A stretch of DNA of 64,000 nt, taken from the IMG/VR virus record IMGVR_UViG_3300001460_000022, positions 5,780-69,779 of that record; one strand, given 5' to 3'. Origin of the DNA: a virus. The notes under the pieces are model-generated. The model was not told the origin of the DNA, ran no database searches, and was given only the letters and a program-made list of their open reading frames with translations. The position numbers and the translations under genes were made by a program. Positions 10,604 to 42,400 of this stretch are shown here, in pieces; positions within the stretch are counted from its first letter, which is position 1; every line of letters begins with the position of its first letter.

Positions 10604-10631
10604 AATATAACCAGATCTCGAATTAAGTCAA
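10604..10631 (-). promoter_or_regulatory. sigma70-type promoter for a leaderless transcript
   Basis: TTGACT-16 bp-TATATT, then 6 nt to the ATG at 10597. Confidence 0.65.
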
Positions 10632-18897: not shown

Positions 18898-18898
18898 C

Positions 18899-24754: not shown

Positions 24755-25823
24755 GGGGCCAATAAATTCCCTGAGCCTAGGTAATGTTTGCGTAAACTTC
24801 CTCAGAGAATTAAAAGAAAAAGATCTAGATATTGGGCTCTTCCCAGTTGGGGATAAAGGTGAATTTCATGCTTACGATCAAGTGAGTGAAGAATTTAAAA
24901 ATTGGGTCCACAATATCTCATCGACGCGATTAAAAAAATTGCATCGAGAAACTCCCACCTTAAAAGTTTGGCATATAAATGGATCTGAAAAAGTTTTACC
25001 TAATCAATATCTTTATACATTTTATGAAACAGATTCTCCAACAGAAGAGGAAGTAAATATTATAAAATTACAAAAACACGTTTTCTTTTCTTCTTCTGAG
25101 TCTGCTGAATGTTTTAAAGATAAAGGATGTGAAAATGTCTCATTTATTCCTCTTGGGTTTGATCCAGATTTTAAGGAAATAAAAAAAGAACATTTAGAAG
25201 ATACTATTCATTTTGGTTTGATTGGTAAGTTTGAGAGAAGAAAAAACACTCAAGCTATTATTCAGTTATGGACACAAAAGTTTGGAAATAATCCTAAATA
25301 TCAATTAACTTGTTTGATTCACAATCCATTCTTAAATGAAGATCAAATGAAACAAGCTGTTGGTAACTCTTTAAGTGGTCAGCATTGGACTAATGTAAAT
25401 TTTTTACCTCATCTTAAAACAAATTCTGAAGTAAATGATTTTATTAACTCTATTGATATAGATTTATCTGGGTTATCTAATGGAGAGGGTTGGAACCTTC
25501 CTTCTTTCAACGCTACAGCGTTGGGCAAGTGGTCTATTGTAAGTAATTGTTCTGCTCATAAAGACTGGGCCACAGAAGAAAATAGTATTTTGGTTGATCC
25601 TGTCGGGAAACAACCTTGTTATGATAACTTTTTTTTCAAAGAAGGTCTTCCGTTCAACCAAGGAGAATATTACAAATTAAATGGAGATGATATTTTGGAA
25701 TCTTTTGATAAAGCTGTAGAGAAAGCGGGACAACTTAACACAGAAGGGACAAAATTGAGGGACAAATTTACATATTCTAAAACAGTTGATGCTATTTTAG
25801 ACTATATATACAGTGATTTATAA
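24735..25823 (+). CDS. GT-B (GT4-like) glycosyltransferase
   Basis: FYETD, IPLGFD, GKFERRKN and SNGEGWNLP. Confidence 0.85.
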   Translation: MKKLNFEGPINSLSLGNVCVNFLRELKEKDLDIGLFPVGDKGEFHAYDQVSEEFKNWVHNISSTRLKKLHRETPTLKVWHINGSEKVLPNQYLYTFYETDSPTEEEVNIIKLQKHVFFSSSESAECFKDKGCENVSFIPLGFDPDFKEIKKEHLEDTIHFGLIGKFERRKNTQAIIQLWTQKFGNNPKYQLTCLIHNPFLNEDQMKQAVGNSLSGQHWTNVNFLPHLKTNSEVNDFINSIDIDLSGLSNGEGWNLPSFNATALGKWSIVSNCSAHKDWATEENSILVDPVGKQPCYDNFFFKEGLPFNQGEYYKLNGDDILESFDKAVEKAGQLNTEGTKLRDKFTYSKTVDAILDYIYSDL

Positions 25824-25852
25824 ATGGTATGGAAAATGATAAAGAGAATAGT

Positions 25853-26179
25853 ATGAATTACAAATTAAATACACACTTATTGGATAACTTCTTTGATGCA
25901 TACGGAACAAGTAAACACGCTGATGTTAAAGACTGCGGCGATGTATACAGTGCTGAATTTGAACTTGCTGGCTTCGCCAAAGATGACATTGATATTACAG
26001 CAACAAACGATAACTTGATTATCAAAGCTAAAAATAACAAGCGTCAAAAGGAATTTAAATTAAATTTATATGGCGCTGTTTCTGTAGAGAATATTAGCTG
26101 CGAAACTGAAAATGGTTTACTTACCGTCACAATGCCGAAAAAATGCGTTAGTGAACAACGCAAAATCAAAATAAATTAA
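25853..26179 (+). CDS. Small heat-shock protein (Hsp20)
   Basis: ELAGFAKDDIDI...ENGLLTVTMPK...RKIKI alpha-crystallin motifs. An alternative start is at 25829. Confidence 0.9.
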   Translation: MNYKLNTHLLDNFFDAYGTSKHADVKDCGDVYSAEFELAGFAKDDIDITATNDNLIIKAKNNKRQKEFKLNLYGAVSVENISCETENGLLTVTMPKKCVSEQRKIKIN

Positions 26180-26556
26180 TGCCAATATATACTTACAAAC
26201 ACCCCACTGAGGAGAGGTATAAGGAAGTTATTCAAGGAATGAATGATGATCATACTTACTCTGAAGATGGGGTGAAGTGGGGAAGGGTTTGGGATATCCC
26301 TAATGCTGCAATATCTTCAAATGCAGACCCATTTAGTCAAAATTCCTTTGTAGAAAAAACGGCTAATATGAAAGGAACTTTTGGAGATATGATGGATTAT
26401 TCCGCTGAGTTAAGTGAAAAGAGAGCTTCAGAAAGTGGAGGAGAAGATCCTTTAAAGAAAAAACTTTTTAAAGACTACGAGAAAAGAGTCGGCAAAAAAC
26501 ACGTTGCTGATAAAAAAGTGACAGAAAATAAATCTTTTAAGATTGATTTAGATTAA
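26179..26556 (+). CDS. FmdB-like small protein (Cys-less variant)
   Basis: MPIYTY...EVIQGM N-terminus resembles the FmdB family. Confidence 0.5.
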   Translation: MPIYTYKHPTEERYKEVIQGMNDDHTYSEDGVKWGRVWDIPNAAISSNADPFSQNSFVEKTANMKGTFGDMMDYSAELSEKRASESGGEDPLKKKLFKDYEKRVGKKHVADKKVTENKSFKIDLD

Positions 26557-27356
26557 GGGTTGCCTCCAGATATCGCAATACCTCCCCATTGGCTAGCTCC
26601 TACAAAAACTACTAATGTAGTTCCTGAGATAGCTAAAGACCCAGTCGCTGGAGCAGTAGGAGTTCCCGCTGTCATTGAGTTACCTAACCAAATTGGAACA
26701 GAAAAACCTGTTTCAAATCTTGTCGTTTCTGTAAATCTTGTCGCCCCTTGAAAAAGAGAAGATCCTAAAACTTCTAGATTGCCACTAAAAATTCCAGATC
26801 CATCAGTTAATGAGTTATCACTAGCATAAACATTCCCTCCTTCAAAGAAAACTCCAGAATCAAACTGGACATGCATACTATGAGGATCTGAAATAGAAAG
26901 ACTAGTTGTCGCCTTGGAGTCTTTTAAACCGATACAACCAGTCGCTGTATTCGTGAATGTTATATTTCTTCCTGCTGCTGTATTTTGATGAGTTCCAGTT
27001 TGAAAATCTGTATTATATCCATTTATAATTAAATTATTTACTCCGCTAACTTCTGAAGAATTAGCTATAATACCAACGTTAAATCCATCATTGGGTCCAT
27101 TTGCGAGATCTGTATCGGTTCCTTGAAACAATAAATTTCCAAAATCAACATTGAAATTGTTGGTCCCAGTATTAGCTAATCCAAATACAGATTTTCCATT
27201 AGTTAAAAGCTGTCCAGTAAAAGCAAAATCACCAGTTAACCCCCTAGATATGTTAAGTTTAATTCCAGTATCAAGTTGTCCAATTCTAATATCCCCAGAA
27301 TCACTAAAAAAAGTGGGCATTTGGACCTGTTCTGGTTGAATTTTGTTAAAAGCCAT
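26553..27356 (-). CDS. Putative virion structural or fibre-like protein
   Basis: G/S/T/N-rich and beta-like, with ~15 [S/T]G dipeptides. GTGTAA motif upstream at 27382-27387. Confidence 0.55.
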   Translation of the reverse strand: MAFNKIQPEQVQMPTFFSDSGDIRIGQLDTGIKLNISRGLTGDFAFTGQLLTNGKSVFGLANTGTNNFNVDFGNLLFQGTDTDLANGPNDGFNVGIIANSSEVSGVNNLIINGYNTDFQTGTHQNTAAGRNITFTNTATGCIGLKDSKATTSLSISDPHSMHVQFDSGVFFEGGNVYASDNSLTDGSGIFSGNLEVLGSSLFQGATRFTETTRFETGFSVPIWLGNSMTAGTPTAPATGSLAISGTTLVVFVGASQWGGIAISGGNP

Positions 27357-27394: not shown

Positions 27395-27955
27395 ATGAAA
27401 TTTACTCTTTATAAGCCAAACTCTAAAAATACAGGTGCTGCATTTAGTTTTGATCTAGCAAAAGACAAGAAGGGCAATGCAGTTATGTATGTCTCAATGA
27501 TCCAACAACATAGTTGGAATGATAAAACAAAAAGTGGCTCTTTTAAGGAAAACGCCAAAAATCCAGAAAAATCTGGCACAATTAAACTTTCGGCAAACGA
27601 AGCTGGGGAAGTTCTTTCTTCATTTAAAACGAGAATCCCTTTCGTAGCCTTTCATAGAAGGAATGAAGATACAACTATAATTAAATTTACTCCTTGGGAC
27701 AAAAAAAGAAAAATTATGGCAAAAGATGGAGAACAGTGGCACGAAACTCCTGCTTTTGGGGTGAGTGTCACAAGAAATTCATCTATGACATTTAAACTTC
27801 CTCTAGAAGCTGGAGAAACAGAGGTTTTATCAGAACTTCTTAAAAAATATATTTTAGAATCTTTTATTGTAGCAGACGCATACAAACCTCAAGCTCCAAA
27901 AGAAGAGCCTCAAGAAGCTACTCCAGATATTGAAGATTCAGATGTCCCATTCTAA
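27395..27955 (+). CDS. Putative single-stranded DNA-binding protein
   Basis: Aromatic and basic beta-rich body with an SSB-type acidic tail, EDSDVPF. Confidence 0.6.
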   Translation: MKFTLYKPNSKNTGAAFSFDLAKDKKGNAVMYVSMIQQHSWNDKTKSGSFKENAKNPEKSGTIKLSANEAGEVLSSFKTRIPFVAFHRRNEDTTIIKFTPWDKKRKIMAKDGEQWHETPAFGVSVTRNSSMTFKLPLEAGETEVLSELLKKYILESFIVADAYKPQAPKEEPQEATPDIEDSDVPF

Positions 27956-29648
27956 AAAACTAAAAATATTAGTTCACTCTAATCATAGTAGACTTGTTAC
28001 TGGCTTCGGTAAGAATGCAAGAAATATTCTTCTGGAATTACATAAAGATCAAGACATTGAAGTTATAGAGGCTGCGAATGGAGTTAAATATGGGGCCGAC
28101 TTAATGACTCCTTGGGAAAGTTATGGAACGCACCCCACTAACCCAAGTATTTTACAAGCTATTAAAGGAGATGGGCCAAAAGAAAGAATGGCTCAGTATG
28201 GATTTTATACTATTGATGAAATTATAGAAAAATGTAATCCTGATGTATATCTTGGGATTGAGGATATCTGGGCTTTCTCAGAATATCAAAATAAACCGTG
28301 GTGGGGGAAGTTAAACAAAGTTCTTTGGACCACCTTGGACAGCTTACCTATTTTAGATCAAGCCTTACAAATGGAACCTCTTTGTGATAAGATGCTAGTA
28401 TGGGCATCTTTTGCAGAAGAAGAGATGAAAAGACTTGGTCACAAAAATGTGTCTACATTACACGGGGCAGTTGATTATAGTTATTTTAAGCCACTCGAAA
28501 ATAGAAATGAAATAAGGAAAAAATTTGACCTAGATGATTGTTATATAATTGGTTTTGTTTTTAAGAATCAATTAAGAAAATCAGTGCCAAACTTATTGCA
28601 AGGGTTTAAAACTTTTAAAGAAAAAAACCCTGAAGCAAACGCCAAACTTCTACTTCATACTGATTGGGGAGAAGTTGGTCAGGGATGGGACATTCCTAGA
28701 TATATAAGGGAAATGGGAATTGATCCAGAAGATGTATTATCTACATATGTCTGTCATGCTTGCGACTTTTACACTGTATCACACTATCAAGGAGAAGATA
28801 AAGATTGTCCTAGATGCAATGCTAAAAAAACTTTTAAAACTAAAAGTAGCTTTAAAGGAATTGGAGAAAGGGAATTAAATGAACTATATAATTGCATGGA
28901 TATATATTGTCATCCCTTTACTAGCGGGGGTCAAGAATTACCAATTCAAGAAGCGAAGGCTGCTGGATTAATTACTTTAGTAACAGAATATTCATGCGGC
29001 AAAGATTCTTGTTATAAAGATCAAGGAGGAATCCCTCTTAAATGGAATGAATATAGAGAACCTCAAACACAATTTATCAAAGCCTCAACTTGCCCAAACG
29101 ATATAGCAGATAAGTTAAAACAAGTTTATAAAATGAGTGATGTTGATAAGTCCGAATTATCGACAAGAGGCATGGAATATGTAAAAGAAGAATTTTCTGT
29201 AAAAGTAATATCACAAAAATTAAAAAAATTACTCTTTAATTTAAAAAAACCAACTTCTTCTGAAGAAGAAAACAAAAAACAGAACCCTTTAAGTATAGAG
29301 GATGTTATCGATGATGAAGGCATTGAAAATAGAATAGCGGTTGTAATGCCAGAATCTGCTGGTGATGTATTAATTATCAATTCTTTAATGGACAACCTAA
29401 AAAGTCTTTACCCAGAAAAGAATATTTATGTTTTTACTAAACCTGAATTCTTCCAAATGATAGAGGATAATCCCAACGTACATAAAATGCTGGCATATCA
29501 ACCATCTTTAGAAAATCTTCTTATGCTAGAAGGAAGAGGAAATCATCAAGGTTATTTTGAAATGGCATTTTTGCCCAACATAGGAACTCAAAGACACTTA
29601 AATTACTTACATAACGGCAAGGATAAAACACAATTTAAATTAAGATGA
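27942..29648 (+). CDS. GT4-like glycosyltransferase with a zinc-ribbon insert and a GT9-like C-terminal domain
   Basis: TGFG, KNQLRK, CHAC...CPRC, SGGQELPIQEA, and C-terminal SAGDVL...DNPNV. Confidence 0.8.
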   Translation: MSHSKKLKILVHSNHSRLVTGFGKNARNILLELHKDQDIEVIEAANGVKYGADLMTPWESYGTHPTNPSILQAIKGDGPKERMAQYGFYTIDEIIEKCNPDVYLGIEDIWAFSEYQNKPWWGKLNKVLWTTLDSLPILDQALQMEPLCDKMLVWASFAEEEMKRLGHKNVSTLHGAVDYSYFKPLENRNEIRKKFDLDDCYIIGFVFKNQLRKSVPNLLQGFKTFKEKNPEANAKLLLHTDWGEVGQGWDIPRYIREMGIDPEDVLSTYVCHACDFYTVSHYQGEDKDCPRCNAKKTFKTKSSFKGIGERELNELYNCMDIYCHPFTSGGQELPIQEAKAAGLITLVTEYSCGKDSCYKDQGGIPLKWNEYREPQTQFIKASTCPNDIADKLKQVYKMSDVDKSELSTRGMEYVKEEFSVKVISQKLKKLLFNLKKPTSSEEENKKQNPLSIEDVIDDEGIENRIAVVMPESAGDVLIINSLMDNLKSLYPEKNIYVFTKPEFFQMIEDNPNVHKMLAYQPSLENLLMLEGRGNHQGYFEMAFLPNIGTQRHLNYLHNGKDKTQFKLR

Positions 29649-30769
29649 GTCATTTAGCTGAAGAATATGCAAAATCATGTGGGGTTAAAATTGGGAAACC
29701 GACTTTAAAGCCTCACTATTTTCCGATTTTGCAAGAAAAATATATAACAATCCACAATGATAAAAAAGTTCAATCAAAGGAATACAACATGTGGAATGAT
29801 GTTATTGATCTAATTAAACCTGAATTAGAAGATATTAAAATTATTCAAGTAGGAGCTTTTGGAGAAGATAAAATTGAAGGTGTCGATTTCCACATTCCTA
29901 CAAGCACACTAAAACAATGCGCTTATATAATTCAGAAAGGTATGGGACACGTTGGGATTGATAGCGTTCCAGTTCATATAGCTTCAGCACTAGATAAGCC
30001 TGTTGTGAGCATCTATGCTCACACTTATGCCAGCACATGCTCTCCACTTTGGAATGAAAAATCTAAATCAATAATTATTGAATCTGATAGAGGAGGAAAC
30101 AAACCCTCTTTTTCTTTAGAAGAAAGCCCAAAAACAATTAATTTCATTAAACCAGAAAAAATAGCACAAGCTATTCTTGATATCTTAAATATCGATAAAA
30201 CAATAAATCATCAAACTCTTTTTATAGGAAATAACTACACCTCTAATTTTGTCGAAATAATTCCAACAGAGAAAACTGGAGTTACTTCTGGTCATATAGA
30301 TGTAAGAATGGATTATGCTCATAATGAGGATGTCTTGGCAGATATTCTTCAAAGGAATAAAGCTGAAGTTACAACCTCAAAGCCTATCCACGAAAGTTTT
30401 TTAACATCTGGGAGAATCAATAAAATTATATATAAAACAGAAAAACTTGATCAAGAATTTTGTGAGGCCGTAAGAAAATCAGGCGTTTCTAATATTTTTA
30501 TATGCACATCTCCTGAAACCATATCTGAAGAACGACTAAATAATTTTGATCTTTTAATCAATAAATTAGATATTAAAGAAATAATTAAAAATAATAAAAA
30601 AAGAATTGAGATCAAAGACTTTGATAAAATCAAAATTAAAAGTGGGAAAAAAGTAGTTTGCGGGCAAGAAATTTACGAAAGTTTTTTTGACTTAAATAGC
30701 CGAAAAAATTTAGATGATTTTTATCTTGATTTAGATTTCTTTAGAGTTTACATTGAACCAGATGAGTAA
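29645..30769 (+). CDS. GT9-like (heptosyltransferase-fold) glycosyltransferase
   Basis: KEYNMW, IIQVG and VGIDSVPVHIASALDKPVVSIY. Confidence 0.8.
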   Translation: MSHLAEEYAKSCGVKIGKPTLKPHYFPILQEKYITIHNDKKVQSKEYNMWNDVIDLIKPELEDIKIIQVGAFGEDKIEGVDFHIPTSTLKQCAYIIQKGMGHVGIDSVPVHIASALDKPVVSIYAHTYASTCSPLWNEKSKSIIIESDRGGNKPSFSLEESPKTINFIKPEKIAQAILDILNIDKTINHQTLFIGNNYTSNFVEIIPTEKTGVTSGHIDVRMDYAHNEDVLADILQRNKAEVTTSKPIHESFLTSGRINKIIYKTEKLDQEFCEAVRKSGVSNIFICTSPETISEERLNNFDLLINKLDIKEIIKNNKKRIEIKDFDKIKIKSGKKVVCGQEIYESFFDLNSRKNLDDFYLDLDFFRVYIEPDE

Positions 30770-31535
30770 GAAAAAAATCTACGGACCAGATATTTATAAG
30801 CGAGATGAGAATGGATTGCTTGAAAATATAGACTACGAATTTAATGAAGATGGCTCTGTTAACTGGCGGGCAATGATTAAAGAGGAGTTTCTTTACCCAA
30901 ACAAAGATTGGTTTGCCTCAAGAAAAAAAGATGTTCCAAGTTCTGTAGAAGGTCTTTCTGATAAGCAGCTTCTTATCATGCTGGGAGGCATTAAGGAACT
31001 CGCCAAGATGCGCGGATACTACAAGGTAGCCTTTAAAACAGAGAATATCGCAGAAGGATATGTCACTGCTAAATGCACTATACAGTGGATTAATAACTAT
31101 GAATCTGCGGCTTGTGGGGTTTCTTACTCTGATGTAGCTAATGCCACTCTAGCAAATACAGACGCTTTTTGTGCTAAATTTCTAGAAACAATTGCTTGCA
31201 ATCGAGCTTTTGTCCGTTGTGTGCGTAATTATCTCAATATTCACATTGTGGGAGCAGATGAGATTGATAAGTCAAAAGGAGCTAATAATTCAAATACAGT
31301 TGAATACGATGCCTCTAGCGACTCTGCCATGTTGCCGTTAACGCCCGCAGGAACGCTTCAGAAGGCTTTGTCTGAAGAGTGGGGAGTAAAGTCCTTTGAG
31401 GACTTTAAACCTCTTCTCAGGGCATTCTGGAAGGAAGAAAAATACAGGAATGAAGAAGCTGCAAATTGGGAATCTTATGGAGATATCCCAGCAAAAGATT
31501 GCAGAAAATTGATCGCACTTTGCAAAAAATCATAA
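30762..31535 (+). CDS. Putative ssDNA-annealing protein (Rad52/Sak-like)
   Basis: GGIKELA...VTAKCTIQW...ETIACNRAFVRCVRNYLNI...DEI pattern resembles an annealase core. Near the SSB-like gene. Confidence 0.45.
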   Translation: MSKKKIYGPDIYKRDENGLLENIDYEFNEDGSVNWRAMIKEEFLYPNKDWFASRKKDVPSSVEGLSDKQLLIMLGGIKELAKMRGYYKVAFKTENIAEGYVTAKCTIQWINNYESAACGVSYSDVANATLANTDAFCAKFLETIACNRAFVRCVRNYLNIHIVGADEIDKSKGANNSNTVEYDASSDSAMLPLTPAGTLQKALSEEWGVKSFEDFKPLLRAFWKEEKYRNEEAANWESYGDIPAKDCRKLIALCKKS

Positions 31536-34049
31536 ACCAAGCGTATTCCGCTGAGAAGCAGTAAATATATTGGAAATATTTGATTTTCTAACAGATGTAT
31601 CCAATCCTCTATCAGTTAACATTTCTTGATCTGGTGGAATTAACTTAATTGTTGATTCATTGATTGTTGTTGTTATACCTTGAGGACCAACTGATATCGA
31701 TAATGAGTTTATAGTAGGGTTGAATTTAGGTATGTGTAATCCATATAAAGTTCTTGAAGAACTTTTTGGGATATCTACGGAATTACTATAATTTCCTCTT
31801 TGTTTTTTTAACGCTTTCATTTCAGAAACATTTCCAGAAGCAGAAAACATAGTCAAATTATTTAACATACTGTATGATGGGGCTTGCACATCGAAAAACT
31901 TTATATCAAAACGATCAAACAAATCTGATACTTTCTGATCGTCAGCCGAGCTATCTGCAATAGCATCATCTTCTGCTTCTTCTCCTTCTTCTCCTAATGG
32001 ATTTACTCTTGTTTTTGCCCGAGTATAAGAAAGCCTCATTGTTTTTTTAGTCTTTTTTGTGGCATTATTCCAATTTGTTAAAGACTGTTTAGCATAACTA
32101 ACAAGGGCTGAAGTGAGGTTCTTTCCGTTGAATGGAATTCTCATTGCCCTACCTGTTCTTGTTGGACCTCCTAACACAAGACCGTGTGTAGCATTGAATA
32201 CAACTAGCTCTGTAAGATTTTGCAAATATCTGAAATCTACAGCTTCATCATCTTTTTTTCTTTCTCTAGATTTTTCTGCCCTGATTCCAACAAAATGAAA
32301 AGGATTAACTTGTCTAGCAGAACTAGTAGCCGCAGCTAGATCTCTAATTCTTAAAAAAGGAACTTTCATCATTTTGAAAAAGTCTTGCACATCTGATAGT
32401 TCATCTATTTCTGATAATAATTCTCTTTCATGGAATGGACCAACAACAGTCATTGTATTAGTATTCTCGAAATTCATTCTTTCTGCCTTATATTGGCTGT
32501 AACCGTTGGATATAAAAAGACCTCCAGAAAATTCAAAAAAAGCTTTTAAAAATCCATATAACTCTGACGTAGAAGGCATTACCATATCTGTAGTTGTTTC
32601 AAATTTGCTGTTTAATTTAATATATTCAAATTTATCCCTTATCCTGTCTAACTTTATATCTCTAAATTCTAACTCTGATATTCTATTAGCTTCTGACATT
32701 GGTTTGTTGGGGAAAATAAATAAAGCATTGTCGGCTTCAGGAGCGGCTTCCTTGGCATCTGGATCGGCACGGGGTGACGGACCATACTTTATAAGTTTAT
32801 CCTTACCTGTTTGTTTATCAATATTACCGAAAGGTTTATCAGTGTAAAGGCCCGCGAGATCTATTTTACCTGCTCTGTCATTCCCTAATCTTTTTTGTAA
32901 TAATGATCTATTCCCATTAAACTTTGTCATCGCGTATACCAAGAATAAAGTATACTTATTAAATAAATCTACATCTGCTGCGTTTTGGTTGAATAAAAAA
33001 TAAAAAACACCTAGTGTTTGACTACTTAATGGGAAATCCGCTATGTTACCATCTCCTCCTACATCTTCAATAATAACTCTTTTAAACACTGATTTTCTAG
33101 GTCTAGCATCATCTTTAGGAGCTTTTCTTTCAGGCTTTTCGGCAGACCCTATGTAAGCATTCACAAGTCTACCCGTATTCTTGCTTTTTGTAAATGAAGC
33201 TGCTGTGATATTTTCATCTGTTGTCCCTGTATAACTCTTAATGTTAATACCAGCAGCCATTTCTGTGTTAACAAATCTAATGGAGCCATTTGTTGGATCA
33301 ACAAACCAAAAGTAACCATAAAATGCTGCGATAGTACCCAAAATACTATCAAGTGTTCCAGTATTTTCAAATAAGATATCTTCATCGTCTGGCATCCCTG
33401 AAACAAATATGCCAACCATAGCCAGAGCTTCTTTAAACTCTTTAGTTGTATAACCAAATTTTAAATCATACTGCGATAAATCTGGATTAGCCTTATAAGT
33501 TTCACTAACTCTTTCATCATTCAAAGATAATTTCTTTTTAAGTTTCCTGTTCTGATATACAAGTGTTATTTTTGAACCATCAAACTGTGCCGCTGATTCA
33601 TAATTATAAATTCTTCCCAGCATTATAACTGATCCAGAAGAATCTATTTTTGGACCTTGAGACTTAAATGCTCTCAAAGGAGAATTTATAACTTCGGTAA
33701 AGTAAGGAACTACACCTTCAAAATTTAATTTTTCAGGACCGCAATTTATTCCCCTAACCAATACCATAAATGATTTTAAACGAAGAGATGTTTTATCAAT
33801 ATATTTTCTACTTATAACTTTTTTAACTGGATCTGCTCCAATACTATGTTGAGTGCAAATAAAATTAGTCATCATTTCAGAAATTTTATCATTTGAGAAA
33901 GAATTTATTTCTCCTAAATCTCCTACTACAGTTCCAAGACCCTCCGAGCCATCTAGGTTTTTAGCATTTAATACTGTTTCTACAGATGCTGTGTGACCTC
34001 CACCAGCATTTGAAAAGTTTAAATTTATTTTTTCTATAGATTCACTCAT
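31530..34049 (-). CDS. Putative tail-tip / baseplate hub protein
   Basis: Last gene of the tail module. YGYFWFVDP..GSIRFV resembles hub proteins. Confidence 0.5.
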   Translation of the reverse strand: MSESIEKINLNFSNAGGGHTASVETVLNAKNLDGSEGLGTVVGDLGEINSFSNDKISEMMTNFICTQHSIGADPVKKVISRKYIDKTSLRLKSFMVLVRGINCGPEKLNFEGVVPYFTEVINSPLRAFKSQGPKIDSSGSVIMLGRIYNYESAAQFDGSKITLVYQNRKLKKKLSLNDERVSETYKANPDLSQYDLKFGYTTKEFKEALAMVGIFVSGMPDDEDILFENTGTLDSILGTIAAFYGYFWFVDPTNGSIRFVNTEMAAGINIKSYTGTTDENITAASFTKSKNTGRLVNAYIGSAEKPERKAPKDDARPRKSVFKRVIIEDVGGDGNIADFPLSSQTLGVFYFLFNQNAADVDLFNKYTLFLVYAMTKFNGNRSLLQKRLGNDRAGKIDLAGLYTDKPFGNIDKQTGKDKLIKYGPSPRADPDAKEAAPEADNALFIFPNKPMSEANRISELEFRDIKLDRIRDKFEYIKLNSKFETTTDMVMPSTSELYGFLKAFFEFSGGLFISNGYSQYKAERMNFENTNTMTVVGPFHERELLSEIDELSDVQDFFKMMKVPFLRIRDLAAATSSARQVNPFHFVGIRAEKSRERKKDDEAVDFRYLQNLTELVVFNATHGLVLGGPTRTGRAMRIPFNGKNLTSALVSYAKQSLTNWNNATKKTKKTMRLSYTRAKTRVNPLGEEGEEAEDDAIADSSADDQKVSDLFDRFDIKFFDVQAPSYSMLNNLTMFSASGNVSEMKALKKQRGNYSNSVDIPKSSSRTLYGLHIPKFNPTINSLSISVGPQGITTTINESTIKLIPPDQEMLTDRGLDTSVRKSNISNIFTASQRNTLGL

Positions 34050-34894
34050 AATAAAAGAGAAGACCCTGATAATGGTTCTTCAAATGATTCGGTTAATCCT
34101 CCACTTATAGTGGCATCAAAGCCCGTCTTAATAATATTTACACCTGTGTAAAGTTCTAGATAATTACTTTGTGACTGAAGAATACCATTAACATAATAAT
34201 TATTTCTTTTTTCTATATATCCATCGGTAAATATAAAATCTGAATATCGCCCTGTTTGAGAAAATGTTCTTTTTGTTTTTTTATGAGCCGTATATTTAAA
34301 TTGATCTTGATTTTCTAGCTTAACAACTCCTGCAACATTCGCAGCAGTTGAGAAAAGTGGAATAAAGTCTAAATCTGTTGTCCCCATAGAAACACCTACC
34401 CCCACTCCAGAATATACTTTTTGTCCATTTAAAAAATAATCACAATCATTAAAGGTTACTGACCCGATACCTGCATTTATGTTTGTTTTTAAAGATTGTC
34501 CAAAATCTCCAGTCGCTGCAAATAGACCTCCAGTAACAATATTATATGTTAATTTTGAATCTCCGTTTTCTGGAGTTGTTTGATGAAAATATAATTTAGC
34601 TTTATCAAAATCATCTGACTCGTCTCCCTTTGTAAAAAAATCTCCTGTTTTTATATTATAAAAAGTCTCATTTGTAATCGTGGAAGTTAAAGGAACTTCT
34701 TGAAATAAACTCTGCCCATTCAAATATAAAGATACTTCTTGCTGGCCCGTGCTTACGGATCTGTCATAGAAAAAATCTCCTAAACTTCCAACAGCATCTC
34801 TATTTAATAAATCAAAAGTTTTCGTCCCTAAAATTTCCGAAGAACAATCAGAAACCAAAGCTCCACCAGTGCTTGAAACAACATCATAAATCAT
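34046..34894 (-). CDS. Tail structural protein
   Basis: Three Y/F-LNG/VNG repeats, ~11 [S/T]G dipeptides, and position in the tail module. Confidence 0.55.
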   Translation of the reverse strand: MIYDVVSSTGGALVSDCSSEILGTKTFDLLNRDAVGSLGDFFYDRSVSTGQQEVSLYLNGQSLFQEVPLTSTITNETFYNIKTGDFFTKGDESDDFDKAKLYFHQTTPENGDSKLTYNIVTGGLFAATGDFGQSLKTNINAGIGSVTFNDCDYFLNGQKVYSGVGVGVSMGTTDLDFIPLFSTAANVAGVVKLENQDQFKYTAHKKTKRTFSQTGRYSDFIFTDGYIEKRNNYYVNGILQSQSNYLELYTGVNIIKTGFDATISGGLTESFEEPLSGSSLLL

Positions 34895-36285
34895 TTTCTC
34901 TCCCCCTTATAATAAACGTAATCTTTTTTAAATAAATCTGATGGTCCAGAGAGGCTTACGCCAGAAGCTTTTAAAGCGGGCCTGTCTTCTACTGTTTCAA
35001 AAAGAGGGATCTGAGTAACTCCACTTATATCTGGTAAATCTCCAGCTTGAAATCTAAATCCATACAGTTTCACCCCGACAGTAGCAGAACCAGAAATACC
35101 TTTTCTTTCAATATAGTTTTGAACTTGTGATTCAACGTGACGAAGACCTAATGTTGAAAAAGCGCTATCTCCACTAGGCACATATTGATAACCAGAATCA
35201 GGATGAAGAAGACCTACTTGTTCTTTGTTAAAAGTTGTAACTCCTCCTTCTTCAAATGTATTATATTCAAAATAGACATCACCTTCAAATTTTGAAGCAG
35301 TAGAACTTGCTGTAAGCCCTCCTGTTAACATATATCTACCAGTAGAAATATTTAAACTTCCAGTGTTTTCATAGTCATATCCCGTTATACCTGTTTTAAA
35401 TGTAGTAACTTGTCTATATCCAGTAATTATTTTTTTGGTCGTTGCTCCTGTTTGACTTTCAAAAAATGAACCAATTAACCCACTTCCAATGCTAAACTCT
35501 AAACTTGGAGCGACATAACCAGATAATAAGCAAAAAGAATTCAGACTAATATCAGATGTTCTAAATTCGCCAGAAGGCCCAGCCGTTCCCCCTCTAAAAT
35601 ATTGATTAGAGCCTCCTAAATAAAATTCTGTATTATTACCAATGTAGCTAGAATCCACATTAAATGTCTCAGTCTCTAGGTTATGATTTAAGTAATCAAA
35701 TCTTGAAAGAGATAAGGTGTTTGACCCAACAGAAAACCCAACAATATTTCTTCTCGAAAGTTCTATCGAATTAGCGGTATAAATAAAATCTCCTCCTCTA
35801 TCAAACGATTGATAAAATAGTTTGCCCCTATCATTAACACCAAAATTAAAGCCCCTTGAACCAGTTACGACTAATCCATCAACACTTGTTGAGATTTTTT
35901 CAAGAGAACCAAAAATAACAGAGTCAGAAACTTCATTATTAAATTGAAAATCAACTACACTAGATAAAGAAGAATATTTAACTGCTGGTGTATCTACCCT
36001 TAACGTTGATTTACTTAAATCTGCCATATCATTACCCAGAAAAATTCCTGTAGTAAAGAGTTTCGCACCAGCAACGGTAGATTGTCCAGAATGAGTAACG
36101 ATCCCACTATATATCCCCGTGTTTACAGATGGATCACAATTTTCTATAACCCCATAGTTTAATCCTCCCGCAGATTCATTACCAATGTGTCTTCCACTCA
36201 TACCAGAAAAATCATAATAAGTCAAAATCTTTTGGTTACTTCCAAAAGATTCAATAATACTATAATTTAATCCCGACTGACTCAT
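34891..36285 (-). CDS. Tail structural protein (possible LamG/ConA-like domain)
   Basis: YYDFSG start, FNFGVN..GKL and FYLGG. ~24 [S/T]G dipeptides. Confidence 0.55.
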   Translation of the reverse strand: MSQSGLNYSIIESFGSNQKILTYYDFSGMSGRHIGNESAGGLNYGVIENCDPSVNTGIYSGIVTHSGQSTVAGAKLFTTGIFLGNDMADLSKSTLRVDTPAVKYSSLSSVVDFQFNNEVSDSVIFGSLEKISTSVDGLVVTGSRGFNFGVNDRGKLFYQSFDRGGDFIYTANSIELSRRNIVGFSVGSNTLSLSRFDYLNHNLETETFNVDSSYIGNNTEFYLGGSNQYFRGGTAGPSGEFRTSDISLNSFCLLSGYVAPSLEFSIGSGLIGSFFESQTGATTKKIITGYRQVTTFKTGITGYDYENTGSLNISTGRYMLTGGLTASSTASKFEGDVYFEYNTFEEGGVTTFNKEQVGLLHPDSGYQYVPSGDSAFSTLGLRHVESQVQNYIERKGISGSATVGVKLYGFRFQAGDLPDISGVTQIPLFETVEDRPALKASGVSLSGPSDLFKKDYVYYKGERK

Positions 36286-36286
36286 A

Positions 36287-37906
36287 TTAATAATACCTAC
36301 TCATATTATAAGAAATAGTTTGATCATTTAAACTACTACTTTCGTTAAAAGAAAATACTCCACTGGCATAACCACTAGATATTTCTATTAATTTTTGTAA
36401 ATCTCCAGTTGAAGCTTCACAACTAGCTGCAACAGCATACTCTCCTGCTCTCCTATTTACTAATTTTTGTTTAGCAAATCCCCCTAAACTTGGGACGATT
36501 CCACTCAACTCAATAGGTTTTTTATCTGTTATACTAATTTGCAATCCAGATAATTGACCAGAGGATAAATCTATCCTATTATCAAATTCTAAAGAATACG
36601 AGATAGAACTTTCTTGAGGGCTTTTCGTTATTTGTCTTGAGTTGGGATTTGGGTTTAGAAAGTCTCCGCTTATATTATAACCTGTTGCATCTCCTGTAAA
36701 ATCTTGCAGAGCTTCTATCGCTAAATTCAAAAACCCAGAGTTTGCTATGACACCACTATACTGAGCATCTACTTGTTTAAATCTTTCTCCAGTGGCAGGA
36801 TCTCCAGTGCCTATTATATCAAATGGTCCTTTGTATTTGAATTCTCCATTGATAGACACTCTGACTACTGATTCATCTTTACTAGCAGAAACTGTCGCTG
36901 ATCTAGTATGAAGAATATTCCCACTCCTATCTAAATTTTCTGGATCAGAAAAAGTATATGTAAAATTTACAACATTAGATCCAGTATCTAAATCATAACT
37001 AACAGTAGAAGGTCCATTATTTATAAAAGTATAAGAACCAGTTTCATAATTAGAAAGAGAAGAAGCTACAGCATTTACGGCTACTTGAGTTGCTTGACTT
37101 GAATCAAAAATACCAGTATCTAATAACCCTGTCCCGAATTGAGGAGAATCAAAACTTCCTTGAACTGATCCGTTGACAGTTACATTTAACCCGTCTTGTT
37201 TGTCAAAAGATATTTTTGTTGAACAATTTAAAATTCCAGATTTTGAAACTCCTGTTGTAGTCAAATCTTCGCTAGTGCTATACTTATAAACTTCATCTAT
37301 GGCGTATTCATTACTAGATTTATCGATGTTTTCAGTTCTTGAAAACAAGAACGCATTATTGTTAGCACCTGTTTGGAATAAACTTAAATCTCTACACCCA
37401 GTAGTTCTTCCTGTTACGAAATGTCTAGCATTCACCAAAGGATCACTGCTATCAACTTTAATTCCTTTTGCAGAAACGGAATGACTTACTTCTGTTATTC
37501 TTCCGTTTTGCTCTGAAAAATCCCATTCATCTTTTGGATTTTCTATCCCAAAAAACTGAGAAAAAGTTTCCTCCGAATAACTTTCAAAAGAAACGGAATA
37601 TGGCAAAACTGTTGTTAGATCAGAAGAATCGAAAGAAATTGATATAGGCTTCGCTGATGCGAATTGCTTATTGCTATCGTTATTGCTAATAGTAATAGTT
37701 TGAAATTCTGAAAGCATTCCGCTAATCATTTGCATTTTTTGCAAATGAAGGCCACTCAAGTTAGATCCAGTTAAATTGCCTACTATTTCTATAGAATTTT
37801 TAGTGTGGTCTACTGCTCCTTGGATATATACAGGCTCTACCCCATACCCAACTAATGGAGTCGGGTAAGGAAAACTATAAGATCCATATGTTACGGTTTC
37901 TGCCAT
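36287..37906 (-). CDS. Tail-tip structural protein
   Basis: Second gene after the tape measure. Beta-rich, and similar to 37906-39447. Confidence 0.55.
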   Translation of the reverse strand: MAETVTYGSYSFPYPTPLVGYGVEPVYIQGAVDHTKNSIEIVGNLTGSNLSGLHLQKMQMISGMLSEFQTITISNNDSNKQFASAKPISISFDSSDLTTVLPYSVSFESYSEETFSQFFGIENPKDEWDFSEQNGRITEVSHSVSAKGIKVDSSDPLVNARHFVTGRTTGCRDLSLFQTGANNNAFLFSRTENIDKSSNEYAIDEVYKYSTSEDLTTTGVSKSGILNCSTKISFDKQDGLNVTVNGSVQGSFDSPQFGTGLLDTGIFDSSQATQVAVNAVASSLSNYETGSYTFINNGPSTVSYDLDTGSNVVNFTYTFSDPENLDRSGNILHTRSATVSASKDESVVRVSINGEFKYKGPFDIIGTGDPATGERFKQVDAQYSGVIANSGFLNLAIEALQDFTGDATGYNISGDFLNPNPNSRQITKSPQESSISYSLEFDNRIDLSSGQLSGLQISITDKKPIELSGIVPSLGGFAKQKLVNRRAGEYAVAASCEASTGDLQKLIEISSGYASGVFSFNESSSLNDQTISYNMSRYY

Positions 37907-39447
37907 TATATAAATAAGTATTGTATACTTCGTGATGCGGTTCCTTGTCCTAGATTTAAGTTGATGACATCATTAATAATATGAATTACATTTTCGTCAA
38001 CCATCTCATTCATTTCAGATGTTTTTGACTCTAAAACATTTCTAACGTCATAAATTCCCATACTTTGACTTGTGACTGCTTCCGCTGTAACTGAAGCTTG
38101 ACCCACTGTTTTCTTATCATTAACTACAATTTGATCTTCTAAATTCACTAAATCTAAAAACTTATGAAGCCTATTAATTTTATGAGTCTTATTTAATGTT
38201 TTTTTAAATTTTAACAAACCATCATTATCATCTTTATAAGCGAGATCTGTTGTAAATGTTATGCTTTCATTAATAGATCCTTCTGATTTTTGGAATGTTG
38301 TAGATCTAGCCTTTTCAACTATATCAGTAACTGGATGAAATAGTCTTTTTACTTTATCTTGATTAAATGTTTGATTTGAAATCCAAGAGGTTTTGGTATT
38401 TAAAAATTTTTCTCTGTTATTCCTACCTTTATTGCTATATGTAATAGATAAAGAATATTCTATAAATCTACCTTGTTTTGTTTCAGCGCCAGAATATGAT
38501 ATTCTTTCGTCTTGTGATCGAGAAGGGTCTGTGCTAAAAGATATTGTTAATGAACCTGAATCCCCATCCTTTGTAATGCCCTTTTCAATTGATACTGGTG
38601 TACCAAATTCAGTTTCATTCTCAGAAGCGATTTCATCAATAATTGTCGCCATAGCAGAAGTAATAACATTTTCAGAATTTCGACTGAGAGAAGTTAAGTT
38701 AACTGTGTGTGTTTTATTTATAAATCCATTTTCTCCTATCTCAAGAGCTTGTGTTTGATTTTTACTAACTCCTTTTACGCCATCTATAAAAGAAGAATCA
38801 ACTTTCTCTGATAAGGAAACTGATAGATCTATTAAATTATAAGTTTCTGTTATTAAACCCCTGAATCCCTTATCAATTTTTGCTTTTTCCGAGATTCCAT
38901 CTTCTTGATATCCTAAAGATGGTCTATTGGCGAAATAATAATTAGTTAAAAATGTTTTCGCATCATTTAAAAATTGACTGCCAGCCTCTTGTTTATATTG
39001 TAAAGATATATTTCTATTAGAAGAATAATCCCCGCCAGATCTTTGAAAGTCATAAGTCTCTTTAAAGTTTTCTACTAAATTAGGATTTGGTATTAGTTTA
39101 GAAAATGTTTTAGAAGAATAATCATCAAGCCTTCTTGATTCTTGTATCACTATAGAAACTATTTCAGAACCTACTAAAGTTCCAGCACTAAAATCAAACG
39201 ATTGTATTCTTCCTTTTAGATAATCGTCTGCTCCAATTCTGGCTACTATATTTTGCCTTTCATAAGCTGCTGTTATAGCATCTCTTCCTTGGATCAAAGT
39301 AGTATCATTTTGTTCAAAATTAATATCAGAGACATCTATTTCATATGTCCCTTCTACTTCATACCCAAATATTTCTTCTGTATCTAAATAAGAATAACTT
39401 ACCTCAACAGCGGAAGATAATACATTATTGACTATAAGTGCTGCCAT
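37906..39447 (-). CDS. Tail-tip structural protein (distal-tail position)
   Basis: Directly downstream of the tape measure. Beta-rich. Confidence 0.55.
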   Translation of the reverse strand: MAALIVNNVLSSAVEVSYSYLDTEEIFGYEVEGTYEIDVSDINFEQNDTTLIQGRDAITAAYERQNIVARIGADDYLKGRIQSFDFSAGTLVGSEIVSIVIQESRRLDDYSSKTFSKLIPNPNLVENFKETYDFQRSGGDYSSNRNISLQYKQEAGSQFLNDAKTFLTNYYFANRPSLGYQEDGISEKAKIDKGFRGLITETYNLIDLSVSLSEKVDSSFIDGVKGVSKNQTQALEIGENGFINKTHTVNLTSLSRNSENVITSAMATIIDEIASENETEFGTPVSIEKGITKDGDSGSLTISFSTDPSRSQDERISYSGAETKQGRFIEYSLSITYSNKGRNNREKFLNTKTSWISNQTFNQDKVKRLFHPVTDIVEKARSTTFQKSEGSINESITFTTDLAYKDDNDGLLKFKKTLNKTHKINRLHKFLDLVNLEDQIVVNDKKTVGQASVTAEAVTSQSMGIYDVRNVLESKTSEMNEMVDENVIHIINDVINLNLGQGTASRSIQYLFI

Positions 39448-39453
39448 AATAAA

Positions 39454-42400
39454 TTATTGTAAATCATCTACCTTGCCTTGTAATAGATCGACCTTGTTTT
39501 CTAGAGTAAGTAAATCTTTTCTTCTATTTTCCATGAATTTAGCGGCTTCTTCGACCAAAGCCGCTGCATTATTTGATGCTGTTAAATTCGATTCTGCAAA
39601 ATCCTTTACCTTCTCAAATGATCCGACAGAGTTTTTTAGTTCGCCTTGTAATGTTTTCAATGCTTCAGCGAAACCCTTTGTAGCCTCATTATTGTGAAGA
39701 GAATTAAAGGCTGTTTGAGATGCTGCCATTTCTGCCCTTAATGCCTCTTGTTGTTTAATTAATGATTTAGTTGATTGATCTAATTCTGCACCGAAATTAG
39801 TTTTTCCTATATTTACGAGGCTATCTGCAAATTTTGCTCGCTTGTCACCATCTTTTCCCTTTTCATTAACATTCTTATATTGGCCTCGAATAACAGCATT
39901 TCTTGCATCATCTATTTTTAATCTAAAGGCTTCAAGAGCCATTCCTGTTTTTCCTGTCGCTGCTGCAATTACTTCATTTACATTACCCAACCCTTTTGAA
40001 TCGAACCCTTCAAATAGTTGGCCCAGAGTTTGAGTTTCATTATCTGTTCTGTCTTTTTTGTTGATTAGATTAATGGCTCTCATAGCATCTTGAAAAGTCG
40101 CAGTAACATCAACTCCACCTTGTTTTATAAGATGATCACTCAATTTAGATAATCCTTCAGACATTCTTTTACGACCCTCTGATATTTTATCATCATTTTG
40201 AGCCATTAGTGCGCTAACATCTTCCATTTTGTTGAGAAATGATGTGCCAGCCTGTATAGCTGCTTTTTTAAACTTCTCTCCAGCTTCTGCCGCATTTTTT
40301 ATTAGCTCTTTGGTGTCTTGTAATCCTAAAGGTTTTTGTCTTTCTGCCGCTAATTTTGCGTCTGCCTTCATTTGATCTTGTCTTAACAAATTAATATTTG
40401 CTAATGCTGCATTCTGCTCTGAGGTTAACATTGTTGCAGATGCAAATGGGCTATCTTTACCTGCCGCCACTGTCAAACCAGATTGGATAGAAGCTCTTTC
40501 AGCCATACCCTTGACAGTTCTTCCCTTTAATCCTTTATTTACTCTTCCTTCAATATCTACAGCCTTTGACCTAGCAACAGCAAGTCTTTCGCTTGCTCTC
40601 GCAAGAGCATTATTTGCCTTTTCTAATTTTTTTTCATAATCCTCTTGCTCTCCAATGGTTTCAAATCTCATTCCAGCAAGGTCTCTTGAAGCTGCCGCTA
40701 ATCTATCTTGTGCTTGAGATAATTTCTCAAGATCTTGTTCTTCTTTTGAATATTCATCCTTTAAGGCTTTCATAGCCTGAACATATTCTTTTTGGATAAC
40801 GCTAGTGTCTTGACCTGCGGCTTGCATTTTGGTCATGTTTTCTGTCGCCCTGTCCATAAATCCCTGACTATTATTAAAGCCAAGTCTTCTATTTCTTGAT
40901 CCTGATGAAGAAACCTCTGCATATCTTTGCATAATTTTTGGATCAAGAGGCTCTGGTCCTTGAAACGCTGAAACTAGTCCTTTGCCCAAACTGCTTCCAG
41001 CAACCGCACCTACGCCTCCTCCTAATAAACCTCCAATTGCCATACCAACTGGCCCTCCAAAAGCTCCCGCCATAGCTCCTAATTTAGCCCCTGCCAATCC
41101 ACCAGCTAATGCTCCTCCTGCACCACCAAGTTCTTGATCTCTTTCTTGTGTAGTAATAGTTCCTGCTTTTTCCTGTTGGAAAGCATCGAAAGCACTAAAT
41201 CCAGCTAAACCAATAGCCAATGGGGCTCCACCAAGTTTGCCTAGTTTACCCACCTTTCCCATAGATCTAGTTCTGGCATTTGCGCTGCGTTGAAGATCAT
41301 TCGCTTTTCTTGTTGCAGTCTTACGATTAAACCCATCAGACATTAAAGACTTTTTTATAGCATGGCGACTTCGACCGCCCATAGGATCTTTGCTCATAGG
41401 CAAGCGACTCTGTATTCCCTGCCTCACCTTTGAGACTGCTCTAGTTCTACCAACAGAAGCTCCCACACGGCCCATCCCCGCTTGTACTCCTTTACCGACA
41501 CTTGAAAATGCTCTCCCGCCGATTCCTCCTGTGACCATATTAAGAGCAGACATTGCCATTAAAGCTGTCATCGCATGATTTGCGGCATTAGCAACGCCCT
41601 CTAGCCCACTATTGGCAGATGATTGCGCTCTTGAGGCATTATCAAGAAGCTGAATCTCTTGCATTTTAGTCGAGATACTTTTTTCGCTTGCCAGTATTTG
41701 ATCAATTTTAACTTCAGCGTCCATCTCAGTCGCATTAGCTGATTGATCTGTTGCAGAAGTAAGTGAGTTTAAAGCCATCTGCATTGAACCTAAAGCAATA
41801 ATGAAACCAGAAGCGCCGCTCATTAAACCGCCGCCACCCCCTTTTGCGTAATTTGGAATAAATCCTCCCGCAAACATGCCAATACCCTTGCGCTCTCTCT
41901 TTATAGCGTCTTGCACCCCGTTAGGCTCATCTCTTATATTTGTCAGAACCTTTCTTCCCTTATCATCAGAGTGTATCCTCATTAAAGACTGAGGAACGCC
42001 ACCTCCGTTAGCATAGTTTGGAACAAATCCTGCCGCAGCAGACATCGGAGCGCCCTTTCTTGGCAAGCTCCTCATGGTTTGTTGAATGAATTTATCTTTT
42101 TGCCCCTGACTGTTTTTAAAATCACCCCACTTGTAGTTCTTTCCAGTAATCCCAAATATTTCTTCTACAGCTTTATTGCCAGCAATATTAACATCTAAAG
42201 TATTGTTTCCTGTTCCAGATTTTATTCCACCAGTTACAGCCTCGATAATAGATTCAAAAATAGCTCCCCTTAATGCTCCAAAAGCACCTGCTCCACCCTC
42301 CTTTAAAACTCTTTGTTTTACTTGTTTCGTTGTAAACTTTCTAGGCTGCATTTTTAATTTGCCCCCACTCTTTGAAACAATGCTCTCCATAGAGTTATTA

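Follow-up and report, generated by a model that had tools for sequence, protein, structure and literature searches.

Four tail proteins encoded in a 64,000-nucleotide stretch of an IMG/VR contig (bases 5780-69779 of virus record IMGVR_UViG_3300001460_000022; this whole stretch is referred to as the window) contain 76 serine-glycine or threonine-glycine pairs, written here as [S/T]-G, against 36.5 expected from their composition, which corresponds to an observed/expected ratio (O/E) of 2.08. We propose that the dipeptide is a putative acceptor tag for a phage-encoded modification, with O-glycosylation as the leading candidate, a reading that we consider plausible but hold only tentatively. The tag would be under selection in p464, p282, p267 and the N-terminal part of p418, and also in p539 as far as this lineage is concerned. 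The excess is not dictated by the fold, since homologues of p539 with the same fold do without it. The enriched proteins and two contrast cases are listed below with their observed and expected numbers of pairs.

36287-37906, minus strand: p539, a hub/Dit-like tail-tip protein; 26 pairs, 10.1 expected, z 5.9, P < 1e-5.
34891-36285, minus strand: p464, a jelly-roll plus beta-hairpin protein; 24 pairs, 12.5 expected, z 3.95, P = 0.0003.
26553-27356, minus strand: p267, a fibre-like protein on the far side of a plus-strand gene block; 15 pairs, 8.0 expected, z 3.0, P = 0.004.
34046-34894, minus strand: p282, a distal tail protein; 11 pairs, 6.0 expected, z 2.4, P = 0.019.
47173-47562, minus strand: the N-terminal 130 residues of p418, a 418-residue protein (46306-47562); 7 pairs in a run with a period of about 10 residues.
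37906-39447, minus strand: p513, the first gene after the tape measure and a contrast case; 3 pairs, 5.9 expected, z -1.35.
31530-34049, minus strand: p839, the last large tail gene and a contrast case; 9 pairs, 8.9 expected, z 0.03.

Significance was determined by reshuffling the residues of each protein 100,000 times; no shuffle reached the 26 pairs of p539. An earlier note on this DNA, made from the letters alone, had described the enrichment from manual counts, and these were exact: 24 pairs in the 464 residues of p464 (10 in the reverse order), 26 in p539, 11 in p282, 15 in p267, 7 in the first 130 residues of p418, 3 in p513, 3 in the capsid candidate and 6 in DnaE. The enrichment it described persisted after correction for composition. 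Its designation of the 37906-39447 product as a paralog was not confirmed, a BLASTP comparison of p513 with p539 giving E = 0.46. The note had assigned the signal to outer virion proteins and inferred a glycan coat over the tail; the enrichment is confined to four to five distal tail proteins and does not extend to the virion in general or to the whole tail. In the window, the O/E was 1.22 for 32 non-structural proteins and 1.07 for 18 other structural proteins, and the capsid candidate (52777-53925, 382 residues) was not enriched (4.9 pairs expected). The same restriction was seen in a related contig rated 100% complete (G004, 147.7 kb), where 5 of 117 open reading frames (ORFs) of at least 120 residues had z values of at least 3. 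Four of them are the homologues of p464 (29 pairs, 9.4 expected, z 7.8), p282 (15, 4.8 expected), p267 (22, 8.5 expected) and the p418 N-terminal module (8, 2.0 expected), and the fifth is a 621-residue ORF without a match to the window. The p539, p513 and p839 homologues of this contig were at or below expectation, with a z of -2.0 for the latter.

The pairs are directional: the four proteins contain 31 G-[S/T] pairs against the 76 [S/T]-G pairs (binomial P = 1.6e-5). With an O/E of 0.85 for G-[S/T] and of 0.65 for Gly-Gly, a local composition rich in Ser, Thr and Gly was ruled out as the cause. Thr is found in 40 and Ser in 36 of the 76 pairs (O/E 2.56 for Thr-Gly and 1.73 for Ser-Gly), and 44% of the glycines in the four proteins taken together, or 41% of the 59 in p464, are preceded by Ser or Thr. 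Asp-Gly (O/E 0.50) and Glu-Gly (0.41) were depleted and Asn-Gly was not (0.95), so that avoidance of deamidation-prone Asn-Gly was ruled out as the driver. The pairs are encoded by 21 hexanucleotides, both serine codon families included, and the commonest core, CTGG, occurs in one reading frame only; a cause at the DNA level was therefore ruled out, and selection acts on the protein and not on a DNA word. When a longer motif around the pair was sought, mildly hydrophobic flanks (0.41-0.46 vs 0.32) were the sole feature found. Periodic [S/T]-G-x-hydrophobic runs are present in p267, in residues 288-322 of p464 and in the p418 N-terminus, where the sites are residues 26, 35, 47, 57, 66, 99 and 128. 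The p418 module occurs in relatives as a stand-alone ORF of 130-154 residues, with 8 pairs against 3.1 expected in locus L027 and 8 against 2.0 (z 4.7) in G004.

As controls outside the clade, 106 ORFs of at least 200 residues from lambda, T5 (50 kb), SPP1 (25 kb) and T4 (50 kb) were used. Their pooled O/E was 1.17 with z values between -1.63 and 3.33, and two only, T5 polymerase and T5 pb4, had a z above 3. Named tail-tip proteins (T4 gp27, gp6 and gp12, SPP1 Dit and Tal, T5 pb3, lambda J and the lambda side-fibre ORFs) had O/E values of 0.56-1.87. For six J-like proteins, taken from cultured Escherichia, Rhizobium, Moraxella, Burkholderia, Pseudomonas and Vibrio phages, the values were 0.81-1.26. 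A profile of GT572, one of the window's glycosyltransferases described below, found no match in the genomes of the control and J-like phages (9 records); the same profile finds the window's gene. The enrichment is therefore not general to tail proteins. The possibility raised in the earlier note, that tail proteins of phages without the glycosyltransferases share the excess, was thus not borne out.

The enrichment is a property of protein families. In the first 20 related loci the families of p267, p282, p464 and p539 had O/E values of 2.15-2.28 (2.28 for 12 unique p267 sequences and 2.23 for 16 unique p282 sequences), as compared to 0.44-1.79 for p513, p839 and the four plus-strand gene families (0.49 for 17 unique p513 sequences and 0.88 for p839). 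In 115 full-length p539 homologues with 41-87% identity we counted a mean of 23.3 pairs against 10.1 expected. Most p539 sites are kept in at least 80% of these homologues, and Ser or Thr in front of Gly is better conserved than other Ser or Thr (0.80 vs 0.64, P = 0.002). All 105 full-length p464 homologues, down to 32% identity, are enriched (O/E 1.87-2.95). The p282 family reaches an O/E of up to 3.7 in distant relatives. Per family, 12-15 site columns are occupied in at least 80% of the members. Turnover is visible in p282 and p267 relatives at 25-31% identity, which carry 10-14 pairs, 5-8 of them at new positions.

Gain and loss within one fold were most evident for p539. A profile search of 1.84 billion representatives yielded 574 p539 relatives, and 115 full-length distant ones had O/E values from 0.12 to 2.78; at 30-38% identity some contained 1-6 pairs and others at equal distance 14-22. 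The nine poorest (29-38% identity) keep a single pair, T46-G47, which is invariant in all lineages, and have DG, NG, EE, NN, ES and the like elsewhere. At the 12 Gly columns common to rich and poor lineages the frequency of a preceding Ser or Thr is the same (0.17 vs 0.17), and the extra 15-20 pairs of the rich lineages therefore lie where Gly is not structurally needed and have been gained or lost as units. One relative, P0241, has 1 pair against 8.2 expected (z -3.1), which is below any of the 106 control ORFs. Contig scans with P0123, P0137, P0130, P0241 and P0259 (viral) and with P0130 and P0139 (metagenome) returned motif-poor locus L028 and motif-rich loci L026 and L027 only. In locus L104 the [S/T]-G-poor inner hub proteins are a p513 homologue (0 pairs, 5.2 expected, z -2.8) and a p539 homologue (1 pair, 6.0 expected, z -2.4). 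In several lineages the two proteins encoded next after the tape measure are depleted, which may reflect avoidance of the tag.

AlphaFold 2 models were used to relate the pairs to structure. The p539 model (predicted local distance difference test, pLDDT, 76) consists of repeated strand-strand-helix modules of the tail-tube-fold type, with weak Foldseek matches (E ~0.01-0.1) to baseplate hub, Dit, Hcp and tube chains. The p464 model (pLDDT 80) has an N-terminal ConA-like jelly roll of about 270 residues followed by long C-terminal beta-hairpins; it matches lectin-like jelly-roll domains at E ~1e-6, the CBM2 domain of the phage J-1 Dit among them, and p464 is probably, judging from its model, a receptor-binding baseplate protein. 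According to DSSP, the Gly of the pair lies in coil, helix and strand in 18, 6 and 2 cases in p539 and in 12, 3 and 9 cases in p464. A structural motif bound to one backbone geometry does not fit these mixed predicted contexts. A simple beta-turn preference, which the earlier note had raised as an alternative, would likewise not be the cause, given these contexts, the same-fold homologues without pairs and the conserved glycines that are not involved.

A candidate for the enzyme is encoded between p839 and p267, in a four-gene plus-strand block with the same order in every relative (p186-GT572-GT374-p260).

27395-27955, plus strand: p186, which always precedes GT572 and whose acidic tail, ...E-D-x-D-V-P-F, resembles the end of bacterial single-stranded DNA-binding protein (SSB).
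27930-29648, plus strand: GT572, a GT4-like GT-B glycosyltransferase with a Cys4 ribbon insert, of which residues ~460-572 correspond to a GT9 N-terminal domain.
29645-30769, plus strand: GT374, a GT9 C-terminal donor-binding domain (residues ~35-180) followed by ~190 residues of unknown fold; it overlaps GT572 by 4 bases.
30753-31535, plus strand: p260, which always follows GT374; its mean column identity is 84%.

The glycosyltransferase assignments were made with the curated cut-offs of Pfam and NCBIfam. The window had been credited with eight glycosyltransferase-like genes. Two are above cut-off, a GT2 gene at 14238-15008 (24.5 bits vs 23.3) and GT374 itself, which matches Pfam GT9 at 35.8 bits (cut-off 22) with residues 86-141 on profile positions 171-225 of 247; the others are not, and three of these have sub-threshold matches (27930-29648, 24729-25823 and 15796-16629). 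GT374 further matches the C-terminal parts of the NCBIfam heptosyltransferase I, II and III models and residues 246-305 of 1psw. GT572 has weak GT1/GT4 Pfam matches, its CxxC...CPxC columns are invariant in the alignment, and its residues 468-523 align to positions 1-56 of heptosyltransferase models and to residues 9-67 of 3tov. The GT9 matches are partial and weak (GT572 468-523 to the N-terminus, GT374 83-142 to the C-terminal domain; best PDB-profile E values of 0.089 and 0.019), and searches of PDB sequences with profiles of the four plus-strand genes gave marginal GT9 matches only. Taken as predicted from these alignments, a GT9-type enzyme is split at its domain boundary over two polypeptides, and the split is kept in all relatives examined. 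GT572 is 59-82% identical in the relatives of the window's tail module and 39-56% identical in the most distant contigs bearing the cassette; the neighbouring tail proteins are less conserved (21-87%). No GT572 relatives were found in bacterial and archaeal genomes with the patterns used. The flanking p186 has no Pfam match and is a probable Whirly-like single-stranded DNA-binding protein, as suggested by an Atlas cluster lead at 0.92 in which 13% of the members carry the family. For p260, which has no Pfam, NCBIfam or PDB-sequence match and is conserved over relatives whose tail proteins differ by 60%, Atlas gives a weak lead, at 0.89 only, to Sak/Rad52 single-strand annealing proteins.

Motif and glycosyltransferase pair were found together across related loci. 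Of 56 such loci, 50 include GT572 in the flanking sequence. The remaining 6 are cut off before the pair would be reached, and one of these has GT572 on the same contig in another locus. The homologues of p464, p282 and p267 are enriched in every related locus that holds them, and p513 is poor in all. The correlation of motif with glycosyltransferase content that the earlier note had suggested as a check has no negative arm within the family: every relative with enough flank has the pair, and the link is therefore co-occurrence within one broad clade.

A wider view was obtained from 12 of 80 loci found with the GT572 profile, namely the most distant ones plus two others. In 6 of the 12 (L114, L117, L122, L130, L137 and L140) enriched convergent neighbour ORFs had no BLAST match to the window's tail proteins. 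The strongest was a 608-residue ORF in L114 with 34 pairs against 11.0 expected (z 8.2), where 72% of the glycines are preceded by Ser or Thr, followed by a 996-residue ORF in L117 (51 pairs, 23.1 expected, z 6.7). Three ORFs in L137 had z values of 4.1-6.4 and an open-ended 743-residue ORF in L130 had 21 pairs against 11.4 (z 3.2). L122 and L140 each contain an ORF of about 300 residues with a z of 4.5-5.4 (in L122 312 residues, 13 pairs, 3.8 expected) and lambda-J-like proteins with z values of 4.3-4.4. J-like proteins of cassette-bearing phages had O/E values of 1.47-1.71 and thus differed from those of the cultured phages without the pair. The enrichment in L100 and L104 is limited to ORFs homologous to p464, p282 and p267 of the window, and in three of the 12 loci the flank shows replication genes only.

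Taken together, gain and loss as a unit, indifference to structural context, occurrence in unrelated tail proteins and the hints of avoidance point to a trans-acting reader of the dipeptide. A modifying enzyme would be the simplest reader, and the phage's soluble transferases are the obvious candidates. In the mechanism that we propose, soluble transferases in the cytoplasm would modify tail-tip proteins that are folded or being assembled, ahead of lysis. GT572, a GT4-like protein carrying the GT9 N-half, docked to GT374 with the C-half, would be the best candidate for the attaching step, in which a first sugar would be transferred onto the Ser or Thr hydroxyl and the following Gly would leave room for the enzyme. 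The glycan could then be extended or decorated by the products of a variable sugar island. The inner hub, represented by p513 and in some lineages also by p539, has few such pairs. In its full form the scheme amounts to a large aquatic phage clade in which an [S/T]-G sequon steers a cytoplasmic O-glycosylation machine, a two-chain GT9 with its acceptor half fused to a zinc-ribbon GT4 and supplied by a strain-variable sugar island, onto chosen tail-tip and fibre proteins, with inner hubs avoiding the sequon, and at this level of detail we regard the proposal as possible though doubtful. The island in question is the following.

10623-20443, minus strand: a sugar-nucleotide and tailoring island with GDP-mannose 4,6-dehydratase, two epimerase/dehydratase-type genes, GT2, PIG-L deacetylase, ATP-grasp and carbamoyltransferase genes and unknowns (Pfam, NCBIfam).

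The island is a possible source of the glycan. In G004 the same slot between RNR (ribonucleotide reductase) and RecA-like genes is occupied by an island (72980-79611) that has no BLAST match to the one in the window, and the glycosyltransferase pair is conserved. From this comparison the island appears to behave as a swappable cassette, with a constant pair and a variable island.

Parts of this scheme have precedents. In mycobacteriophages the glycan sites lie in C-terminal extensions, whereas the tag proposed here is a dipeptide spread over folded domains. As in these phages, glycosyltransferases are encoded by the window phage (GT2 and GT9 above cut-off). Virion glycosylation is established for mycobacteriophages: in Che8, Rita and relatives, phage-encoded glycosyltransferases are proposed to modify structural proteins of the same phage while these are still in the cytoplasm, and glycans on major capsid proteins are reported to have been shown chemically (Freeman et al. 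2023, Cell Host Microbe 31:1216, as reported in PMC11256854). The capsid candidate of the window is not enriched and the candidates are four to five tail-tip or fibre proteins, judged by motif alone. The closest mechanistic parallel is the bacterial autotransporter heptosyltransferase TibC/AAH, a cytoplasmic GT-B enzyme related to lipopolysaccharide (LPS) heptosyltransferases, which hyper-glycosylates many Ser on loops of the folded, beta-rich surface protein TibA/AIDA-I (eLife 2014;3:e03714, PMC4358343). Of the window's genes, the GT9-like pair comes closest in sequence to that class of enzymes. TibC is a single chain that forms an iron-containing (iron-finger) dodecamer, with Asp-110, Thr-226, Lys-230, Arg-286 and Trp-305 as its catalytic Asp and ADP-heptose-binding residues (PMC4358343). 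Set against this description, the GT9 domains here are divided between two ORFs, both in the window and in every relative examined, and a GT4-like protein carries the N-half. A GT-B enzyme with its Rossmann-like halves on separate polypeptides is known from Alg13/Alg14, which are GT1/GT28-like; the split described here is GT9-like, with the N-half fused to another complete transferase.

Two known acceptor sites do not match the context of the dipeptide. Proteoglycan xylosyltransferase uses Ser before Gly as the acceptor and needs acidic residues nearby. The analogy to this site drawn in the earlier note fails on context: acidic residues at positions -4 to +5 are at background in the window's proteins (0.03-0.14 vs 0.10), and Thr is as common as Ser. 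No GT14-type xylosyltransferase was matched in the Pfam scan of the window's proteins. General O-glycosylation in Bacteroidota, which is periplasmic and host-encoded, modifies many surface proteins at the sequon D-[S/T]-[A/I/L/V/M/T]; this three-residue sequon excludes Gly at +1, whereas +1 is Gly here and Asp is found at -1 in 6 of 76 sites. A full-text literature search found no description of a phage Ser-Gly or [S/T]-G glycosylation tag.

Several observations weigh against an acceptor tag read by the phage's transferases. The pair has no operon of its own and is located between a probable SSB gene and a possible annealing gene, at the end of the early/replication block, and its adjacency to the tail genes may only reflect convergent operon ends. 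The cassette-bearing contigs all share DnaE, RNR and other genes, so that the association between motif and glycosyltransferases is one within a single broad clade and not phylogenetically independent, and no relative without the pair was found among the 56 related loci. The p539 homologue is motif-poor in spite of the cassette in L028 (2 pairs, 6 expected), in L058/G004 (3, 5 expected) and in L104. The 2137-residue tail protein of L133, one of the 12 loci above, is not enriched (z 1.1), and neither is p839, presumably the most distal large protein. Asn or Asp often substitutes for Ser or Thr at conserved sites, as expected for a structural Asx/ST-type position, and the part of the excess that lies in short periodic beta-repeat runs looks structural.

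The last two points lead to the strongest alternative, that [S/T]-G is a structural motif without any modification, i.e. a clade-specific solution for tight turns, helix caps and beta-repeat kinks of fibre-like tail proteins that would have been spread by descent and module shuffling. It would account for the conservation of sites by position, for the invariant T46-G47 of p539, for the complete lack of poor members among the 105 p464 homologues and for flanks that are mildly hydrophobic as at strand ends. Against it stand the p539 homologues that manage without the pairs in the same fold and the location of the extra pairs away from structurally conserved glycines. In the models the pairs are spread over coil, strand and helix, which would not be expected of one local geometry. 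The reverse pair is not enriched, the J-like proteins are enriched in cassette-bearing phages only, and a single protein has up to 72% of its glycines preceded by Ser or Thr. On balance we consider a structural motif somewhat unlikely.

Distinctly less probable is a tag of another kind, i.e. a phosphorylation, acylation, phospho-sugar or docking motif, with the glycosyltransferase pair and the sugar island directed at the host envelope (for superinfection exclusion or for masking of receptors) or, less likely, at DNA. Lineage-wise gain and loss as a unit points to a trans-acting reader of unspecified kind, the pair sits among DNA-metabolism genes, and GT9 enzymes are best known as LPS-core heptosyltransferases, whose NCBIfam models are those matched here. 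Among the 64 proteins of the Pfam scan, however, there was no kinase, acyltransferase or other candidate for a writer, and a host-envelope target would leave the motif wholly unexplained. DNA is less likely as acceptor because no ThyA-type hydroxymethylase was found in 4 of 4 relatives (77-100% complete), so that a hydroxymethyl-base acceptor is lacking; a TET/JBP search was also empty, but was made without a positive control. Chance, composition or a nucleotide artefact (codon-pair bias, a DNA motif or Asn-Gly avoidance) is hardly credible in view of the p539 shuffles, the replication of the excess in hundreds of homologues, the single-frame CTGG core among 21 hexanucleotides and the undepleted Asn-Gly.

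The proposed acceptor tag belongs to a phage group without a cultured relative: a tblastn search with p539 against 50,697 phage records gave no match, the terminase is at most 24% identical to those of Bacillus phages, and the homologues derive from marine and other aquatic metagenomes. The contig is 69.8 kb long and rated ~50% complete, and the G+C content is 33%. The replication block in the window comprises DnaE, an exonuclease, a PD-(D/E)XK nuclease, a primase, a DnaB-like helicase, a RecA-like protein and RNR; a gene for an S-adenosylmethionine-dependent O-methyltransferase (22347-22970) lies between the genes for the large and small RNR subunits (20701-23919, minus strand). On the minus strand, a late operon extends from the terminase (58111-60006) via the capsid candidate and the tape measure (39454-44565, 1703 residues) to five tail-tip genes. 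Of 22 structural proteins searched against PHROGs, the tape measure and the terminase were the only ones named. The tape-measure region (40000-44000) has a G+C content of 39-42%, as compared to 29-36% in most of the window, and the protein contains 182 Gly in its 1703 residues. Directly downstream of the terminase, a 317-residue protein (59969-60922, minus strand) has sub-threshold matches to a zinc finger of the C2H2 type at its N-terminus and to an ERCC4-type nuclease domain, and a small heat-shock gene of the HSP20/alpha-crystallin type (25829-26179, plus strand) adjoins p267. Two sigma-70 family factors of the extracytoplasmic function (ECF) type are encoded at 24158-24754 (plus strand) and 61977-62660 (minus strand), the latter above the TIGR02937 cut-off; sub-threshold matches of these factors to Bacteroidota-type NCBIfam sigma models give a very weak hint at the host group.

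If the proposed tag is a glycosylation site, sequon-directed protein glycosylation exists in bacterial viruses, and this would be the first sequon-defined system there, with gain and loss of the sequon visible in evolution. The dipeptide excess together with the split glycosyltransferase pair would provide a sequence rule for finding such phages in metagenomes, and the pair and its substrates would represent a compact soluble enzyme/acceptor pair for glyco-engineering. If the pairs are structural instead, they would constitute an unusually clean case of a dipeptide 'dialect' particular to a lineage, which comes and goes while the fold stays the same. For the phages themselves, a glycosylation tag would mean that these abundant phages of oceans and lakes cover the structures with which they recognise the host with a glycan of their own making that varies between strains, with consequences for host range, for the stability of the virion and for its adhesion in the water column.

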